8,930 bases of DNA from Candidatus Heimdallarchaeota archaeon (GCA_020351745.1 CP070665.1:1125430-1134359), one strand, 5' to 3'. Shown: positions 205 to 6,956, numbered from the stretch's first letter. Notes: generated by a model not told the origin, from the letters alone. A program made the numbers and translations.

Positions 205-1518
205 TTACCAGGGTCCATGTTTTGGGAATTGAGGTTCCCAATTAGGTGGAATCGTACCAGTAGCATAAACTGTTATATTGAAGTTCTCTAGCAAATTATC
301 TTTAGCATTCTGAATATCTTCTGGACTGATTTGAAAGATATTCTTCTGAAATTCTTTGACTGAGAGGGGTTGGTGGAATTTAACATACTTTTGAAGAAGA
401 TCAATCCCATAATTACTGGGATCCTCGATTTCAGAAAGATATGACCCCCAAACTTCATCTTTCAGCGCGTTAGCGATTTGAGGGGAAATTTCTAGATCAC
501 GAACATAAATCATTAAGTCAATAACCTTTTGAAAGACCTCTTCTGTCTTGTTAGGAGGGCTTATGAAGAGAATATTACCTATTGAGACATCATAGAGAGC
601 TTCAAATCCATAGCGACATCCACTGGCTATTCCTTTGCTAATTACTTCCCTATACAATAATGAGGTGCGTGAATTTCCAATGAATGTATTTAGTAACAGT
701 AATGGGAAAAAGTCTGTTGATCGAATGCCAGGAGAGGTCCAAGTCAAAGCAACGTAAGAGAGGGGTTTTGATGTTTCCTTTTTGTAAAAGGAAATATTAC
801 TTATACCATTTTTTGGAGAAGGGTATTCAACATTTGGTGGGTAAATTGGATGTGTTCGTGGTTGGGCGATTGGATCACTGAAAATAGAGGTTAAGGGTTG
901 TTTTTCTGTTTCTAAATCGAAACCTCCGACCAGAGTCACTATCGCATTATCAAAAGAATACAAACGCTCAATGTAATCAAGCATCATATCAGGTGTAATA
1001 TCTGCTACAGAATCAAGTGTTCCAGGGATATTGTGCTCGAGTGCTGTACCAGTGAGATGTTTTTTCCGAACTGTAAGATTCGTATCGAATTCTGGCATAT
1101 CCGTATAAAATTGTATCTCTTGTAAAATAACTTCTTTCTCTGCTTTAAATTCTGTTGAATCAATGGTCTTATCAACTAATAATTCCTTCCAAATTTCTGC
1201 AGCTTTATGTAAATTCCGACTAGGGACTTTTGCATAATATGCTGTATGATCGTAGGTTGTATATGCGTTTAAATCAGCTCCCAGGCGTGTGAACGCCTCG
1301 TTTACTTGTTTCGCGGTTTTAGTAGGGGTTCCTTTGAAGAACATGTGTTCTATAAAATGACTAATCCCATCATTTGATCCAGGGCCAAATCCTTCCTCAT
1401 ACATTGCTCCTGCATGGAAACCAACCGCGAATAAAGTCGTTTTCCCACCTGGAATTGAGACTAATTGCAATTTTAGATTATTATCCAAAGTTACGATTTC
1501 AAATTGATCGGTCAGCAT
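205..1518 (-). CDS. M16B (pitrilysin/insulinase family) zinc metallopeptidase, catalytically competent subunit
   Basis: 437-aa ORF with an ATG start. The inverted zinc motif HFIEH (aa 54-58, nt 1345..1359) sits in GISHFIEHMFFKGT. The distal Glu in EKEVILQEIQ (E134) is 76 residues after the second His, the spacing I recall for MPP-beta zinc ligands. The ~50-kDa two-domain size is typical of M16B. Start is 13 nt after the upstream gene stop. Confidence 0.9.
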   Translation of the reverse strand: MLTDQFEIVTLDNNLKLQLVSIPGGKTTLFAVGFHAGAMYEEGFGPGSNDGISHFIEHMFFKGTPTKTAKQVNEAFTRLGADLNAYTTYDHTAYYAKVPSRNLHKAAEIWKELLVDKTIDSTEFKAEKEVILQEIQFYTDMPEFDTNLTVRKKHLTGTALEHNIPGTLDSVADITPDMMLDYIERLYSFDNAIVTLVGGFDLETEKQPLTSIFSDPIAQPRTHPIYPPNVEYPSPKNGISNISFYKKETSKPLSYVALTWTSPGIRSTDFFPLLLLNTFIGNSRTSLLYREVISKGIASGCRYGFEALYDVSIGNILFISPPNKTEEVFQKVIDLMIYVRDLEISPQIANALKDEVWGSYLSEIEDPSNYGIDLLQKYVKFHQPLSVKEFQKNIFQISPEDIQNAKDNLLENFNITVYATGTIPPNWEPQFPKHGPW

Positions 1519-1531
1519 TGATTTTCTCTCA

Positions 1532-2782
1532 TTATCCAGTATAAGTATTTCTTTTCCAACTTTCTTGAATCTGAGCGAAATTTATATCACCAACAATAGC
1601 TAAACTAACATTTTCAGGACAAAGGAGAGTTTCTTTCCACCACGAGTTGATACCTTCAGAAGTTACCACTTCAATTTCCTTATATCCTGACTCAATGTTC
1701 GGTGGAAGACCATGGACTCCCCTATTTATAATTCGAGAAGCTGTTGAACGGGAATCATCAAAAGATAAATCTAGTTGTCCTAAGATGAAATCACGGGTTG
1801 TATCATATTCTTCTTGTGATATAATCTCTCTACGTATATCGGTAAGTAGCTCCACTAACGAGTTTATTGCTTCTTCTGTCCTCTTTGGAGATGTTTCCAT
1901 GTAACAACGTAGTACTAATGATTTATCTAGAAGTTTCAAAGTCGATCCAGCAATGTATCCAAATGCTTTTTGTTCTCTCAGAATTGAGAACATTCTGGAG
2001 CCAAAAGATTCTCCAAGGAGAGCACTGGAAAAACGTGCCAGACCGATTGTATTCGGATTTGCATCAGTTACAATGTTGACACAAAGATATACACTACCCT
2101 CTTCCTTTGAAGATGCAGCAATAAGATTATTTGGTTGTATTTCTCTTTGAGGAAATGATTGAAGCTTTTGAGTCTTTGTTCTTTGGTTTGAAAGAAATTC
2201 AGTTAATTTTTGGTCTATTTGTTTATGAAGACCTTCTGAAATCGCTCCCACGGCAAATCCCCACGGATTAATTAATAATTCATGATGAGTTTTTTGTAGA
2301 TCGTCTCTCGTGAGTTTTCCTAAGGATTCAGGTGTTCCAATTTGAGAGCGGCCAAGGGGATGATTCTCTCCAAAAGTGGCTTTATCCGCGTCAAAAATCA
2401 TCATCCTTCGTATTGGATTAGATCGAACTTGATGGAAAATCTGGACTAAATTCTGTTTTTCAATAAGAAAATGAGGTTCCTCTAAGGTGGGGTGTGAAAT
2501 CATTTCGAAAAGAAGATCCAAAGTTCGGATTGCATATTTTGGTTGAATTTGAGCACCGATAATAGAGAAATCTTTTTCTGTAGAAGAAAACAGCGAGCCA
2601 CCTGTCCCATCAATCAATCTAGCGATTTCAGTTTCGTTATGTTGTTCCGTCCCTCGAGCCATGGTTTGTAACAGAACTTGGGTGGTACCAGCAAGTTTAT
2701 CGTGAGCTGCCCCTCGGTGGGTAACGATCCCCAAGCATATTGTACGTAAGTTAGGATATGGTCGAATCACTGTTGAGAGCAT
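1532..2782 (-). CDS. M16B-family peptidase-like protein, non-catalytic subunit (zinc motif lost)
   Basis: 416-aa ORF with an ATG start and GGAG (2791..2794) 8 nt upstream. GTTQVLLQTMARGT aligns with GISHFIEHMFFKGT of the neighbouring gene, so HxxEH is replaced by QVLLQ (aa 35-39, nt 2666..2680). Both His ligands and the catalytic Glu are therefore missing. Overall length is M16B-like. Confidence 0.85.
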   Translation of the reverse strand: MLSTVIRPYPNLRTICLGIVTHRGAAHDKLAGTTQVLLQTMARGTEQHNETEIARLIDGTGGSLFSSTEKDFSIIGAQIQPKYAIRTLDLLFEMISHPTLEEPHFLIEKQNLVQIFHQVRSNPIRRMMIFDADKATFGENHPLGRSQIGTPESLGKLTRDDLQKTHHELLINPWGFAVGAISEGLHKQIDQKLTEFLSNQRTKTQKLQSFPQREIQPNNLIAASSKEEGSVYLCVNIVTDANPNTIGLARFSSALLGESFGSRMFSILREQKAFGYIAGSTLKLLDKSLVLRCYMETSPKRTEEAINSLVELLTDIRREIISQEEYDTTRDFILGQLDLSFDDSRSTASRIINRGVHGLPPNIESGYKEIEVVTSEGINSWWKETLLCPENVSLAIVGDINFAQIQESWKRNTYTG

Positions 2783-2849: not shown

Positions 2850-4382
2850 TCATTGAGTGAGCTGGAGGGTCATCGTACGTTCGGGAGCAACTTTCACTAT
2901 TTTTGCTCGGCCTTTTTTCCACCACCAAAGAATTGCTCCACCTACAGCGCCAACGAAAAGAAGGACCTGAGCAATAATTATCACCCAAATCATATCGAAA
3001 GATCTAGCAAGTTGCGGAAGAAGGATAGCTAATTGACCAGCCATTGTTGCTTGAAGGGTACCATTGAATAATGAGTCGACAGCTGGCATAGTACCACCTC
3101 CGATTATTCCTATTAAAGCTGCTACTTGACTGACACGATGACTGGCAACAGACAATTCTGGGAGATCTAATCGTAGTAAAACTGTTTCTCTCTCGTCTTT
3201 TATGAAGAGGGATCCTTCGAGAGATGTAGCTCGGAATCCTGCTTCTACTAACGGAGTAATAAAGAATGTTAGCACTTTTGGGAGGTTTTGTGGTTTTGGA
3301 TCAATAATTTGAGAAGTGGGTTGTACTAAACATCCACCCAGTAATGGTTCCACAACTATTCGTTTAGTGATATCAAGTAGTTCAAACTCTCCCCGAGTCT
3401 CTTTTTCTTCCTCACCCGATAGAAAGTGCTTCTTATCAGCAGCAATCTTTTTTGCTATCTGCGACAAAGTTACAGTAAATGGATAGGTTTTTCGAGGATT
3501 CATTCTGGAATAATAGTGAACGTGAGTATGAATAGTTTCAGGTTTTATTGTTTCAGGGCTGACTGTGGTGGGTGGTATAGGTTTTTCCTCAATTTCAGTC
3601 TTAAGTTCTTCTTTTATCACCTTTTTTCGTTTTTTTGAAACCTCTTCTTCTCGAATATCAAAACTCTCAGCTGCTTTAATAGGAGCTGCTGTTGGTGCTG
3701 GTGGAGGTGCCTCTGAAGGGGGAGGTGGTGGTGCAGGTTGCGGAGCTGGGGGAGCAGCTCTAGCAGCAGGACGAGATACGGGCGAAACTCCGCCAGAAGG
3801 GCCAGATGGTGTCCTCAAAACAGGTTTAGGGGGAGGGGTTGGCGGAGGCGCGGGTTCTGCAATTTCGGGAGGCGCTTCTGATTTTAGTTTTTCTGATGTA
3901 ATCTCTTCTAAAGCACCTTCAAGGATGTCATCAAGAACTGCTTCATCAAAAGCTGCTACTTCCTCTTTTTCATCCATTGCTTCCTCAATTGTTTCTTCTT
4001 CATGAAGTAAGGGAATGTCTTCTAGTTTACTTGAAAGATTGACCGCGCTTTTAGAGTAAAGCTTATCTGTTGACAGTGCTAATTCAGTTAAAACTGGTTG
4101 AATTTTTTCATATTGGGTTAGTTCTTCCCAAATAGCACCTGCTAAAAGTAAGGTTTCCAGAATAACATATTTACCAGCCTCCGTGGCTTCTTTTAATATT
4201 GTAAGAATAGTTGAAAGAAATCTAGAAGGTGTTTGAGGAAAAAAGGTTTCAAAAGTTGAGGCAAGATAATGATGAAACTCCTTATTATTAACATATTTTG
4301 AGTCGTTTGGGAGAGTTAGAAGAAAATTAGGAACAAAATCTAACCAATTCGAGGCAGATTGAAGAGAGAAAGGGAAAAACAT
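2850..4382 (-). CDS. multidomain membrane-anchored protein: helical/acidic N-terminal domain, polyproline tract, beta-rich domain, C-terminal TM anchor; function unknown
   Basis: 510-aa ORF with ATG at 4382 and GAGGT (4389..4393) 6 nt upstream. aa 1-~125 are helical. aa 125-169 are strongly acidic. aa 170-234 are Pro/Ala-rich (PAPPPTPPPKP, APPAPQPAPPPPPSEAPPPAP). aa 245-265 form a K/E-rich linker. aa ~285-415 show an alternating hydrophobic beta-strand pattern (YPFTVTL, RIVVEPLLGGCLVQP, LTFFITPLVEAG, VLLRLDLPELSV). The hydrophobic span MIWVIIIAQVLLFVGAVGGAILWWW (nt 2919..2993) is followed by KKGRAK. No obvious N-terminal signal peptide. Confidence 0.8.
   Translation of the reverse strand: MFFPFSLQSASNWLDFVPNFLLTLPNDSKYVNNKEFHHYLASTFETFFPQTPSRFLSTILTILKEATEAGKYVILETLLLAGAIWEELTQYEKIQPVLTELALSTDKLYSKSAVNLSSKLEDIPLLHEEETIEEAMDEKEEVAAFDEAVLDDILEGALEEITSEKLKSEAPPEIAEPAPPPTPPPKPVLRTPSGPSGGVSPVSRPAARAAPPAPQPAPPPPPSEAPPPAPTAAPIKAAESFDIREEEVSKKRKKVIKEELKTEIEEKPIPPTTVSPETIKPETIHTHVHYYSRMNPRKTYPFTVTLSQIAKKIAADKKHFLSGEEEKETRGEFELLDITKRIVVEPLLGGCLVQPTSQIIDPKPQNLPKVLTFFITPLVEAGFRATSLEGSLFIKDERETVLLRLDLPELSVASHRVSQVAALIGIIGGGTMPAVDSLFNGTLQATMAGQLAILLPQLARSFDMIWVIIIAQVLLFVGAVGGAILWWWKKGRAKIVKVAPERTMTLQLTQ
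3681..3875 (-). repeat. low-complexity polyproline (Pro/Ala-rich) coding tract; local GC-rich island
   Basis: aa 170-234 of the 510-aa protein. Runs of CCN/GCN codons make this ~200 nt far more GC-rich than the AT-rich surroundings. They also produce the Gly-rich antisense shadow ORF 3565..4005. Confidence 0.8.
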
Positions 4383-4517: not shown

Positions 4518-4901
4518 TCACTTCTGTGACTCTGCACTAGCTCGAAGTATGATGATCTCATTTTGAATTTCTTTAATGAGTTCATCATAAGGGCAAAGAA
4601 GGTATAGATCAATGTTTCTTATCGTCTCAGGGTTATTAATATTAAAAAGAGTTCCTTCATCAACTAATTTGGCTAAACCTTGGGGAACAAACACAATTCC
4701 TTCACGAATGAGTCTAAAGATTTCCCGTAATAAGTTCTCCTTTTCTTGTAATGTTTGTATCCCAAGGAGGTTTAACAGAAACTGTAAATTTTGCCTTTCT
4801 GTGTCCTTAAATGATAATAAAATGAGCGCACGATCTGTTAATTGAACTCGTTCTTCTTCAGTTATTTCAATTTCTTTCGATAGATTTCTGTTAGTTTTCA
4901 T
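4518..4901 (-). CDS. small winged-helix-like protein of unknown family, paralog B (copy of 5406..5870)
   Basis: 127-aa ORF with an ATG start. It aligns without gaps to the 5406..5894 product: 66 identities over 110 positions by my hand count. Shared blocks are DRAL.LLSFKDT, LIREGIV(F/Y)VP.GL, INN, NID..LL.PY(D/E)ELI(K/R)EIQNEI. The helix-rich core followed by a G-I-V-x-V-P hairpin resembles a winged-helix fold; this is inference. Confidence 0.8.
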   Translation of the reverse strand: MKTNRNLSKEIEITEEERVQLTDRALILLSFKDTERQNLQFLLNLLGIQTLQEKENLLREIFRLIREGIVFVPQGLAKLVDEGTLFNINNPETIRNIDLYLLCPYDELIKEIQNEIIILRASAESQK

Positions 4902-4945
4902 CGGAATCTCGGCCTTTGCATATCCATGATAAGTCCTTACATAAT

Positions 4946-5422
4946 TTAAAATTGGGGAGATAGGTATAATAGCAATAATCGCTTGAGTAATGAATTATCT
5001 TCAAATCCTAAGGAAGGAATCAGCTCGAAATTGATTTGAGACAAGACCTCAGTTACCGAACAGCTTTTTAGGATGTTTAACTTATCTCTAACAGCATTAA
5101 TTTCATGATAGAGTTCATTTAATTGAGTAAAATTGTTGATTTGGTAATTAAAGACCTTCCGAATCTCCTCAAAATTATTGTAGAGCTTTACAAGTTCTTC
5201 AATAGGAGTTTGGGAAGGTAGTTCGAGTTCTGACTGCATATGTTTTATAAATCGCCAAGTGGCAATTAAATCATGTTCAGAGGAACCATTGGTTAATTTC
5301 AGGAATTCCTTAAGTTGTTTGACTTCTCGCTGTTTTTCACTATCCTTAGATGCAAGATCTTTGTGGAACATCATTTTCCATCCATCCGATTCATTGGTAT
5401 AGTATTTATGGATCTTTAACAA
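4946..5422 (-). CDS. all-helical hypothetical protein, upstream partner of paralog B
   Basis: 158-aa ORF whose listed start is TTG (5422..5420), overlapping the upstream gene by 17 nt. The first ATG pair is at 5374/5371, giving ~142 aa. The sequence is K/E/L/N-rich and looks alpha-helical. The C-terminal SLLKRLLLLYL resembles SELKRLLTYFL in the 5872..6189 product. The stop lies 44 nt upstream of the 4901 start. Confidence 0.65.
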   Translation of the reverse strand: MLKIHKYYTNESDGWKMMFHKDLASKDSEKQREVKQLKEFLKLTNGSSEHDLIATWRFIKHMQSELELPSQTPIEELVKLYNNFEEIRKVFNYQINNFTQLNELYHEINAVRDKLNILKSCSVTEVLSQINFELIPSLGFEDNSLLKRLLLLYLSPQF

Positions 5423-5870
5423 CCGTAATAGTACTCAACTCAGTTATCTCGTTTTGAATTTCACGAATTAATTCCTCATAGGGACGCAGGAGGCATATAT
5501 CAATATTTTCGGCTTCTAAAGAGTTGTTAATATCAAGACGAGAACCTTGATCGATTAATTGAGGGAGTCCACGAGGTACATACACTATCCCCTCTCGAAT
5601 TAAACGGTAAATCTCTTGTAATGTATTCCTCTTCTCTTCTAATGTGCTAATACCAAGAACATTTAAGACATACCGTAAGTTTTGAGTAGAAGTATCTTTG
5701 AACGAAAGAAGCAGAAGAGCACGATCTGCTAAGCGGTGAATATCACTTTCAGTTACCTCTACTCTTTTCTCTTCTTTTGATTGTAAGAATGGTTTATCCA
5801 ATAGAGATTCACGAGCTGTCTTTTTACGATTTGGTTCAACTTTTCGAATCGAAACAAATTCTGAAAACAT
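5406..5870 (-). CDS. small winged-helix-like protein of unknown family, paralog A (with a basic N-terminal extension)
   Basis: The ORF track gives 5406..5894 (162 aa). I prefer the ATG at 5870 (154 aa). GGAGGT (5878..5883) lies 7 nt upstream of it, and the upstream gene stop (5874..5872) is separated from it by one nt (TGAcATG). It is the paralog of 4518..4901, about 60% identical over the ~110-aa core. The extra N-terminal ~35 aa are basic (SIRKVEPNRKKTARE). Confidence 0.8.
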   Translation of the reverse strand: MFSEFVSIRKVEPNRKKTARESLLDKPFLQSKEEKRVEVTESDIHRLADRALLLLSFKDTSTQNLRYVLNVLGISTLEEKRNTLQEIYRLIREGIVYVPRGLPQLIDQGSRLDINNSLEAENIDICLLRPYEELIREIQNEITELSTITVVKDP

Positions 5871-5871
5871 G

Positions 5872-6189
5872 TCAAATACCTCCAGTAAGCGCATACCGAG
5901 AACTATCTGCAGGATCCTGGATCATTTGCAGTCTTTCGTGCGAGAAATATTCGATTAAGTCAAGAAAATAAGTGAGGAGTCGTTTGAGTTCTGACTCTGA
6001 AAAATTATTTTTTTCGTCCATTTGGAGTAAACAGAGCTTATTTTGAAGCTCTAATGAAGAAAAGAGATTCGTAGACATGAATAATAGTTGAAATATTCGA
6101 TCTAATGATTCTTTGATGCCAAATTGGTCGGTTACTTGCACTTTTTTCAACGTCCATGTGTTTTTGGAAATCTTTACTTTGAATAACAA
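5872..6189 (-). CDS. helical hypothetical protein, upstream partner of paralog A (possibly a shortened copy of the 4946..5422 gene)
   Basis: 105-aa ORF whose listed start is TTG (6189..6187). The frame is open up to 6252 with no ATG or GTG, and the first ATG is at 6078 (M38). It shares the LKRLL-type motif with the 158-aa protein, but the overall similarity is weak. Its stop is coupled to the next gene start. Start and authenticity are uncertain. Confidence 0.45.
   Translation of the reverse strand: MLFKVKISKNTWTLKKVQVTDQFGIKESLDRIFQLLFMSTNLFSSLELQNKLCLLQMDEKNNFSESELKRLLTYFLDLIEYFSHERLQMIQDPADSSRYALTGGI
5878..5883 (-). promoter_or_regulatory. Shine-Dalgarno site (GGAGGT) for the ATG at 5870, inside the 3' end of the upstream ORF
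   Basis: Plus-strand acctcc at 5878..5883 reads GGAGGT on the minus strand. It has a 7-nt spacer to ATG 5870..5868, and the TGA of the upstream ORF lies between them (translational coupling). Confidence 0.5.
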
Positions 6190-6440
6190 ATGAAAATCGC
6201 ATGTTGAAATATAGGGAAGTAAATCATTTTGGACATAAATCGAAAAAAGTTGTCAGTAATCATCCAAAATCATCATATGGTAAGAAATGTTAAAAAACGA
6301 CAAAAATCATCAATGGAAAAGCTCTCCCTCCATTGGTACGGAAATCGAAGAATGAATATTGATTACTTAAAAAAGAAGCCATATAGAGTCTGAAATGAGT
6401 CAATAATATTTAGATTTATATGACTGAAGTTGTTTAGAGA

Positions 6441-6600
6441 CATGGAGGGCCATTAAAAGGCCACATGTTACCCTGGGAGGATTACCATTATATATGACAA
6501 ACCAGATTTAACCTAATAGAGTCTTTCAGGGTACTCCCAGGATTAATCTCGGGGGAGTCCTCTTATATGAGGGTATTTGTTGATTTTGTCGGGTTTTTTC
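6441..6600 (+). ncRNA. candidate small structured RNA (unclassified)
   Basis: A locally GC-enriched segment inside a ~500-bp gene-free AT-rich gap. It contains a perfect 8-bp stem, CCTGGGAG (6472..6479) with CTCCCAGG (6534..6541). There is an alternative 6-bp pairing, ACTCCC (6533..6538) with GGGAGT (6553..6558). Small hairpins are GGCC/GGCC (6448..6451 with 6459..6462) and CCTC/GAGG (6559..6562 with 6569..6572). The segment ends in T6 (6594..6599). A TTATATA-like box at 6488..6494 could act as a promoter. Strand and ends are uncertain, and no known RNA family was recognised. Confidence 0.25.
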
Positions 6601-6695
6601 TGCATGTATAAAATAGAGAGGCCTTTATTATGACATACCTATAGTTTAAAGAAAGCACAATCAGATAATCAATTTTGTGTTTTCTAGTATTGAAT

Positions 6696-6848
6696 TCAGT
6701 CTATTATTGTACTAGCTGGTCCAGCAACAACTGCAGTTCCTAATGACGATGCTGCAATGTAGAGCAATATTAGGAATAACCAAGGAAGTAGTTTTAATAG
6801 CGTTAATTCGACATCAATTCTTTTCTCACGATTTCTAACTTTTTTCAT
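6696..6848 (-). CDS. small (50-aa) single-pass membrane protein, hypothetical
   Basis: Below the ORF-track length cutoff. ATG at 6848..6846 and TGA at 6698..6696: MKKVRNREKRIDVELTLLKLLPWLFLILLYIAASSLGTAVVAGPASTIID. It has a basic N-terminus followed by one ~25-residue hydrophobic span. AGGTG (6860..6864) lies 11 nt upstream of the ATG. It is transcribed divergently from the 6991 gene. Confidence 0.4.
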   Translation of the reverse strand: MKKVRNREKRIDVELTLLKLLPWLFLILLYIAASSLGTAVVAGPASTIID

Positions 6849-6956
6849 TGTTTTTTACACACCTATTTCTTTTTATTCGGTTTTTTTTGTTAAATTCTAG
6901 CATTTTAAGCAATCATTTTGCTTAAATGCACATTCGAATATTTTGTTTAGACAGGT

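Follow-up and report, generated by a model that had tools for sequence, protein, structure and literature searches.

Regulators of the MarR and PadR families, such as BpsR (6pco) and LmrR (3f8f/8yrf), are the described proteins that come closest to a group of small winged-helix (WH) proteins encoded on a stretch of DNA from Candidatus Heimdallarchaeota archaeon (GCA_020351745.1 CP070665.1:1125430-1134359; 8,930 nt in all, hereafter the window). Here two WH genes, WH-A and WH-B, alternate with two genes for helical proteins, S89 and H142, downstream of a 23-bp palindrome. As in MarR and PadR proteins, one helix at the N-terminus and a long one at the C-terminus flank a single winged helix, and these are the elements through which those regulators dimerise; the proteins are small (125-155 amino acids, aa), a palindrome lies in the promoter of their own operon (23 to 27 of 29 S89-WH operons) and there are many paralogs per genome. 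By analogy, the WH proteins would be functionally closest to MarR/PadR-type autoregulators; every profile membership test failed and the fold match is weak. Unlike MarR and PadR proteins, they have no profile or sequence similarity to a described family, have wing strands set apart by some 23 residues that include a short helix, and keep a recognition helix that is nearly invariant among paralogs rather than diversified. In addition, the full-length proteins are acidic, WH has an obligate co-translated acidic partner, S89, and its binding to the palindrome is only predicted.

Sso10a (4hw0) and AspA (5k5q) likewise combine a winged helix with a long C-terminal helix. AspA binds to a palindrome that precedes its own operon and acts together with partners encoded downstream. 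Neither protein has a sequence relation to the WH family, whose locus lacks ParB/ParA partners and whose members, unlike chromatin proteins, are not basic overall. Lrp/AsnC-type helix-turn-helix (HTH) proteins, such as Pyrococcus horikoshii FL11 (PH1519), are found in the same neighbourhoods in the form of two proteins, c5 and HTH495. S89, WH-A, H142 and WH-B are themselves not Lrp-like, and the RAM/ligand domain seen in full-length Lrp is missing from c5. Among archaea, Hodarchaeales/Heimdallarchaeia are at present placed nearest to eukaryotes, and to our knowledge no function has been assigned to most of the genes specific to their lineage. The locus described here brings together three linked orphan families and a sharply defined cis-element that is shared with the gene of one small Lrp-type HTH protein, and it offers a compact regulon open to study with recombinant proteins and a 23-bp probe, with no need to culture the organism.

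The operon and its core gene pair

We find a conserved operon of Hodarchaeales/Heimdallarchaeia made up of an operator-like site, S89, WH-A, H142, WH-B, a proline-rich membrane protein (PP510) and a pair of M16 peptidase subunits, with S89 and WH-A as its core. The minus strand of the window carries seven co-oriented genes. Four of them, at 4518-6189, had been singled out in an earlier note made from the sequence alone, and all four are real open reading frames (ORFs). Gene starts were set by homologue alignments together with the NCBI calls for identical proteins; WH-A has the shorter of the two sizes first given (154 rather than 162 aa), the size of WH-B (127 aa) stands, and the helical proteins shrink from 105 to 89 aa (S89) and from 158 to 142 aa (H142). 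In the order of transcription, the promoter elements and the four genes are:

6232..6254, not stranded: palindrome GACA-N15-TGTC, 23 bp, reading GACAACTTTTTTCGATTTATGTC on the minus strand; putative operator-like or upstream activating site
6204..6213, minus strand: TATA-like box TATATTTCAA, 18 nt downstream of the palindrome
5872..6141, minus strand: S89, 89 aa, GTG start at 6141 as placed by the family alignment
5406..5870, minus strand: WH-A, 154 aa, ATG at 5870, long-form winged-helix protein
4946..5374, minus strand: H142, 142 aa, ATG at 5374, helical, coiled-coil-like orphan
4518..4901, minus strand: WH-B, 127 aa, short-form paralog of WH-A without the N-terminal extension

At the junction of the first pair, GGA GGT ATT TGA c ATG, a single base lies between the S89 stop codon (5874-5872) and the WH-A start codon at 5870. 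The translational coupling proposed for this pair stands as to the spacing of stop and start; the GGAGGT also cited for it is the Gly-Gly codon pair of the conserved S89 C-terminus. Database proteins identical to WH-A (JSU57_05420), H142 (JSU57_05415) and S89 (JSU57_05425) are all annotated as hypothetical in a Candidatus Heimdallarchaeota metagenome-assembled genome (MAG), and the source of the window is a Heimdallarchaeota/Hodarchaeales MAG. All named WH homologues come from MAGs labelled Heimdall-, Hod-, Hermod-, Thor- or Prometheoarchaeota, the labels being the depositors' own. An exhaustive search of 1.84 billion representative proteins with a hidden Markov model (HMM) of the WH profile returned 28 clusters only at E<=1e-3. 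None of the four proteins has an accepted family match in Pfam, NCBIfam, PADLOC or PDB sequences, singly or family-wide, which bears out the initial impression that they belong to no characterised family; literature searches on the S89, WH and H142 families in Hodarchaeales returned nothing. As judged from these homology searches, S89, WH and H142 are three lineage-restricted orphan families.

Gene order was surveyed by running HMMs of the S89, WH and H142 families against the six-frame ORFs of 46 related loci. S89 stands immediately upstream of a long-form WH gene in 27 non-redundant cases, and the full order S89>WH>H142>WH>PP510>M16>M16 is found in at least nine genomes. Deep-branching genomes carry S89>WH>H142>PP510 or WH>H142>PP510>M16>M16, with a single WH gene; further loci hold S89>WH alone, often next to an HTH495 paralog, and short "solo" WH genes have ordinary metabolic genes as neighbours. 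The linkage to a polyproline membrane protein and a protease pair, remarked on in the earlier note, is conserved across many genomes. Identity across genera is 50-85%. A housekeeping gene of the Mrp/NBP35 type adjoins the operon in 16 distinct loci, and the operon is therefore chromosomal and vertically inherited.

Sequence comparison makes WH-A and WH-B unambiguous paralogs: BLASTP aligns them without gaps at 66/108 identities (61%, E 2e-39), in agreement with an earlier count by hand of 66 in 110. No such kinship joins the helical proteins. H142 as a diverged S89 is rejected by BLASTP (E 3.2) and by hhalign (probability 0.4%, then 0.2% with richer profiles), and the S-x-LKRLL motif once taken to link them is aligned in neither hhalign run; it lies in the middle of S89 and at the C-terminus of H142, which fits a chance match. 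Because S89 and H142 are unrelated (hhalign <1%), no two-gene module has been duplicated here. A relation of WH to S89, H142 or c5 was also rejected (hhalign for WH versus c5, probability 0.8%).

The history of the WH genes was followed in a distance tree. In this neighbour-joining tree, computed without bootstrap, members of the WH-A clade are always preceded by S89, and members of the WH-B clade, which always lie just before PP510, are sister to the dispersed solo short WH genes. The distance matrices of S89 and WH-A correlate (r 0.73), and within-genome copies duplicate as pairs. On this comparative evidence the recurring, duplicating two-gene unit is S89>WH-A, and the tree points to WH-B as an old duplicate of the WH gene alone. 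The tandem duplication of a helical-plus-WH module, which had been the first description of the locus, does not fit the unrelated helical proteins or the single-gene origin that the tree gives to WH-B; the gene-order survey upholds the S89>WH pairing (27 cases) and not helical-WH as one repeated module. Whichever function the proteins turn out to have, the "duplicated two-gene module" is to be corrected, with S89>WH as the true unit.

Both helical ORFs are conserved, each with its own family of homologues. S89 is acidic (isoelectric point, pI, 4.6), with a conserved helix LLTYFLDLIEYF and the C-terminus RYALTGG[FLI]. AlphaFold2 builds it as three helices followed by an unstructured C-terminal tail at low confidence (predicted local distance difference test, pLDDT, 62), and because of this low confidence its Foldseek matches are meaningless. 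Two candidate identities for S89 were rejected. A ubiquitin-like modifier, considered for the C-terminal GG, does not agree with the C-terminus G-[GD]-[FLISY], which reads GD in several members and differs altogether in one, nor with a model that is all-helical, at low confidence, and has no beta-grasp; a single winged helix, read by eye from "RYALTGG", finds no support in the three helices and disordered tail of that same model. In Pfam, S89 weakly matches TssR_C (15/36 members, best E 1.5e-4, below the gathering score) and H142 weakly matches MRG (5/20 members), and both matches are uninformative. The sole PDB sequence match of H142, to the coiled-coil neck of DC-SIGNR (E 1e-6), is by its sequence a matter of coiled-coil repeat or composition bias. 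H142 is found almost only in operons that also encode PP510. Two records, P0148 and L049 1329-1691, join an S89-like N-terminus (MQV[TM]EQF.IKKSLD) to an unrelated nucleotidyltransferase-like or FGGY-kinase-like C-terminus; they are probably assembly chimeras or rearrangements at the S89 gene.

The winged-helix fold and the upstream palindrome

An AlphaFold2 model of WH-A, built on a 52-sequence alignment, has a confident core (pLDDT ~90) and a single WH domain per chain. A variable, disordered N-terminal tail is followed by a long helix (32-55), the winged helix and a long C-terminal helix (131-152). The winged helix itself consists of a strand at 62-64, helices at 65-71 and 77-92, a strand at 96-100 and a second wing strand at 124-127, the two wing strands being joined by the loop of about 23 residues with its short helix. 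Foldseek comparison with the PDB places only winged-helix proteins among the top matches, with E >= 0.14 and template-modelling (TM) scores of 0.4-0.6. The winged-helix-like fold suggested in the earlier note is in this way confirmed by a confident core and by all top matches. The leading matches, MarR (BpsR), PadR (LmrR), Sso10a, AspA and ArsR, are dimeric DNA-binding regulators. MarR reaches a probability of 0.91 (BpsR), but with E >= 0.14 and TM 0.39-0.45, on a compatible topology; the PadR protein LmrR (probability 0.91, TMt 0.55-0.61, E 0.3-1.7) is a weak resemblance. Sso10a and AspA give the best local superpositions (root-mean-square deviation, rmsd, 3.7-5 A; TMt 0.55-0.62; AspA probability 0.72). 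As far as the model goes, this settles the fold class, a winged helix between flanking helices of the kind seen in dimeric regulators, but it does not settle the family. WH-A and WH-B match nothing in Pfam, MarR and MarR_2 included, at E<=1, PadR (PF03551) matches none of the 52 WH family members, and NCBIfam gives nothing for the WH proteins except RecX at E 0.046.

Within the WH family two segments are near-invariant, SFKDT.TQNL..VL..LGI and EIYRLIREGIVYVPRGLP, and conservation across all paralogs is strongest in the recognition helix and the beginning of the wing. The conserved core is basic (consensus pI ~10). A genome holds two to four dispersed WH paralogs, some of them solo genes beside ordinary metabolic genes. 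One distant member, P0162 (L047 3355-4110), ends in a fused receiver domain (Response_reg, E 1.6e-13); an S89 homologue precedes it, and the palindrome lies 115 nt upstream of that S89 gene. WH-A and WH-B have no receiver domain, and in P0162, the only member with this fusion, the order of domains is the reverse of that in OmpR.

The palindrome was found as a phylogenetic footprint in an alignment of the S89 upstream regions of eight loci. GACA-N15-TGTC has a single match in the window (6232-6254). Of 29 S89 loci, 19 have it with no half-site mismatch at 112-115 nt before the S89 start codon, 23 have it at any distance between 94 and 145 nt, and four more have a version with one mismatch. Its consensus across S89 loci is GACAyaTTTTTyCGAAAwnnTGTC, with two half-sites of 4 bp that are 19 bp apart from centre to centre. 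Among 28 exact matches in ~597 kb of related DNA, 23 are upstream of S89. Counted the other way, a palindrome is present within 200 nt upstream of 20/28 S89 ORFs and of 5/609 other ORFs of at least 100 aa (Fisher p 4e-27). The carriers include loci without PP510 or M16 genes, loci without an adjacent HTH495 gene and the WH-receiver locus. A block (T/A)TAT(A/T)TCAA is conserved in the eight aligned upstream regions and would be the TATA box.

The same palindrome stands before another gene, and copies of that gene, c5, account for the remaining carriers. c5 is a protein of ~98 aa, basic (pI 9.9) and composed of an HTH only (PH1519 in the PDB, E 4.5e-5; Pfam HTH_24). It is not encoded in the window, and its genes in related loci are:

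L019 746-1093, L022 15584-15931, L026 13170-13472, L021 2916-3212: c5
L024 5996-6304, L014 3536-3844, L025 7189-7515, L050 756-1052: c5

In five of five stand-alone c5 genes the palindrome lies 97 nt upstream of the ATG, twice in exact form and three times with a TGGC or GCCA variant, and a further downstream box, TGTCAyTTTCGAAyATCTT, is common to the c5 and S89 promoters. Because palindrome and box occur in both promoter sets, the S89-WH operons and the c5 genes form a small, specific regulon. Searching metagenomes with the extended motif gave four contigs, of which two hold S89 promoters, one a c5 promoter and one what looks like a chance match. Two loci have c5 in third place in an S89>WH>c5 operon, and c5 genes also lie next to solo WH genes in convergent orientation.

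What binds the palindrome

Which protein, then, acts at this site? The reading that we tentatively favour, as quite possible and short of probable, is a self-regulating transcription-factor module. WH proteins would make up a new and highly diverged family of winged-helix DNA-binding factors, dimeric and MarR/PadR-like. By recognising GACA-N15-TGTC, which lies a short way upstream of the promoter in nearly every S89-WH operon, they would regulate the operon that encodes them; the near-invariant recognition helix of the paralogs would match the invariant half-sites of paralogous promoters. S89 would be a stoichiometric, translationally coupled acidic modulator of WH-A, either a co-factor or an anti-factor, WH-B could heterodimerise with WH-A or compete at the same palindrome, and H142, PP510 and the M16 peptidases may be regulated output or signal-coupling cargo. 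This reading is supported by a fold that matches dimeric DNA-binding regulators, by the basic WH core and by a palindrome at a fixed distance from S89, and also by the receiver fusion, the coupled S89>WH pairing and the dispersed paralogs, as in regulator families. If it is true, the WH proteins are a new winged-helix regulator family beyond the existing profiles, with an obligate small partner.

Several results weigh against it. At full length the WH proteins are acidic (pI 4.9-5.4), not one of the 52 family members matches any Pfam HTH-clan model even at E<=0.1, WH-A has no PDB sequence match, and its Foldseek E-values are weak (>= 0.14). Twelve solo WH loci have no palindrome upstream of the WH gene. 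Since the palindrome lies upstream of the TATA-like box, its position does not tell repression from activation. With its canonical HTH, the palindrome and further box in its promoters and its place in S89>WH>c5 operons, c5 is an equally good candidate binder. HTH495 is a less likely one, because its own promoter has no palindrome and because it is often absent nearby.

As c5 could be the palindrome binder, a role for the WH proteins in a protein complex stays in play. A possible yet doubtful alternative is that S89, WH-A, H142 and WH-B form a non-DNA-binding adaptor complex on the N-terminal domain of PP510, with a possible part in presenting substrates to, or regulating, the M16 pair, and that c5 binds the palindrome in trans to control the regulon and its own gene. 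Such a complex would account for a gene order S89-WH-H142-(WH)-PP510 that is kept over deep divergence, for the tight translational coupling of S89 and WH-A, and for a conservation that is very high for small proteins, paralogs included, as expected if they share a protein partner. At full length all four proteins are acidic and the WH proteins give no HTH profile signal, whereas c5 is a bona fide HTH protein with the palindrome in its own promoter in five of five cases; the S89 tail, unstructured in the model, may fold on a partner. Set against this, S89>WH pairs also occur without H142, PP510 or M16, solo WH genes lie among unrelated metabolic genes, and a WH-receiver fusion exists. Moreover, the nearest folds are dimeric DNA-binding regulators, PCI and cullin WH domains reach Foldseek probabilities of at most 0.41 with a poor rmsd for the PCI type, and the WH core is basic. 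If WH is not the binder, the locus would encode an undescribed complex built on WH and linked to PP510 and the M16 pair. In its fullest form, which we consider rather unlikely, this would be a membrane-associated machine of Hodarchaeales, a four-protein adaptor on PP510 together with an MPP-like M16 heterodimer, its expression set by the Lrp-type HTH protein via the palindrome; it would follow, by analogy, the logic of WH modules as protein adaptors in ESCRT-II or PCI complexes. A protein complex, if true, would be more remarkable than a regulator; on present evidence the locus is not a new kind of machine.

That S89-WH is a type II toxin-antitoxin-like or defence module is very improbable. 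Toxin-first systems such as HigBA and MqsRA share with it two small coupled genes, the second with an HTH/WH fold, a palindrome upstream and several copies, here multiple paralogous copies per genome. Unlike them, S89-WH has no toxin or antitoxin homology, with no toxin, antitoxin or defence match in PADLOC, Pfam or NCBIfam, and S89 is acidic and helical, unlike known RNase-type toxins. The pair is highly conserved inside a longer conserved operon, and the fixed chromosomal site by Mrp/NBP35 (16 distinct loci) and the identity of 50-85% point to vertical, not sporadic or mobile, inheritance.

Just as improbable is that the WH proteins are archaeal counterparts of eukaryote-type protein-binding WH complexes, namely ESCRT-II (Vps22/25/36), PCI or kleisin-kite/ScpB. 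The likeness is one of generic winged-helix fold only; the lineage is the closest to eukaryotes, and the lower ranks of the Foldseek matches include a few WH domains of CSN, Rpn, cullin and Scc1. These matches are poor: CSN and Rpn reach a probability of at most 0.3 with an rmsd >20 A, cullin and Scc1 0.41-0.60 with E of 1.3 or higher, and no ESCRT-II chain is among the top 50. Pfam EAP30, ESCRT-II, PCI and ScpB match none of the 52 WH family members, so that there is neither a profile nor a significant fold match. WH proteins have one WH per chain, not tandem WH domains or a helical repeat with a WH, and the profile search gave 28 small clusters only and no large eukaryote-type family. No Vps4, ESCRT-III, other ESCRT, SMC, kleisin or proteasome-lid gene lies within +-10 kb in the closed genome CP070695. 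The earlier note had preferred protein binding of the ESCRT-II, ScpB or PCI type to DNA binding. This preference is weakened, by best folds that are DNA-binding regulators, the basic core, the receiver fusion, a palindrome at nearly all S89-WH operons and the lack of ESCRT genes nearby, and it survives as the complex role discussed above.

Least probable of all is a centromere-like palindrome bound by an AspA-like WH protein that works with a ParA-like neighbour: AspA is among the fold matches (probability 0.72), the palindrome is upstream and a deviant-Walker-A ATPase is the conserved divergent neighbour, but that ATPase is an Mrp/NBP35/ApbC Fe-S carrier and not ParA, there is no ParB-like gene, and one palindrome per promoter at a fixed distance, in several paralogous operons per chromosome, is promoter-like.

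Neighbouring genes and minor elements

The remaining genes of the window, and the ATPase gene just past its end, are:

2850..4382, minus strand: PP510, 510 aa, membrane-anchored and Pro-rich, with an alignment of 22 homologues
1532..2782, minus strand: M16 peptidase subunit, inactive-type, Peptidase_M16 and M16_C, no HxxEH, syntenic
205..1518, minus strand: M16 peptidase subunit, active-type, Peptidase_M16 E 3.5e-26, HFIEH at residue 54, syntenic
6696..6848, minus strand: sm50, conserved 50-aa membrane protein (MKKVRNREKRIDVEL...) with a transmembrane segment; same ORF in L002
6943..8430, plus strand: HTH495, ~480 aa, two HTH regions (Lrp/AsnC-type)
L002 6046-6849, L006 6899-7726 and others: Mrp/NBP35 homologues in related loci

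PP510 follows WH or H142 in nearly all loci. It consists of a highly conserved N-terminal domain of ~140 aa (MxFPFSL...LTELALS.D.LYSK), a hypervariable, acidic, polyproline linker with 27% Pro over residues 160-270, and a C-terminal part with a very conserved beta-rich domain (TIHTHVHYYSRMNPRKTYPFTVTLS...) and a transmembrane segment at 458-488, followed by WWWKKGRA. It has no signal peptide and no Pfam match. A WH2-like actin-binding motif (VLDDILEG...KLKS, with weak matches to BimA and SemD) was discarded as unconserved among homologues. Heimdall profilin binds polyproline in vitro (PMC8410842); a link between it and the polyproline of PP510 is pure speculation. In L004 (4362-7160 and 10911-13716; RDOB01000003, a Heimdall MAG) S89>WH>H142 occurs a second time with two flanking TldD/PmbA metallopeptidase pairs; a different two-subunit peptide-processing protease takes the place of the M16 pair in the same neighbourhood.

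On the other side of the operon, sm50 is divergent from HTH495 across a spacer of ~95 nt. Homologues of sm50 are found in 12 distinct loci, usually beside HTH495 paralogs, and HTH495/sm50 looks like a recurring divergent pair of its own. HTH495 has weak profile matches (HTH_24, HTH_AsnC, Lrp) and no confident family. Its family is rich in paralogs, with five copies around one S89-WH pair in L025 (467-8987) and two in L013, and it often flanks S89-WH. The divergent upstream neighbour, just past the end of the window, encodes an Mrp/NBP35/ApbC Fe-S carrier ATPase (Pfam "ParA"). NCBIfam gives MrpORP at E 3.5e-91, ApbC at 9e-69 and ParA_partition at 1e-8 over the P-loop only; a partition ATPase was rejected on the MrpORP match and the CPKC motif.

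A structured RNA in the intergenic region 6139-6942 was likewise rejected, with no Rfam match, no tRNA and an RNAalifold consensus of only -1.96 kcal/mol. Two short conserved elements were observed here. On the minus strand between sm50 and the S89 promoter lies a non-coding block at 6440-6490, with its core GGCCTTTTAATGGCC at 6448-6462. The block, AATCCTCCCAGGGTAATAyGTGGCCTTTTAATGGCCCTC, is common to 6/8 close loci, has no Rfam match and a trivial consensus-fold energy, and may be a further protein-binding site or the terminator region of sm50. The presumed 5' leader of S89 contains, shortly before the GTG, the 14-nt ACACATGGACGTTG (6151-6164, minus strand), which is exact in 5/8 close loci and has one or two changes in the other three, between variable flanks. 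As in-frame stops lie upstream of it in some loci, it is argued to be non-coding, and it may be a leader or translation-control element.

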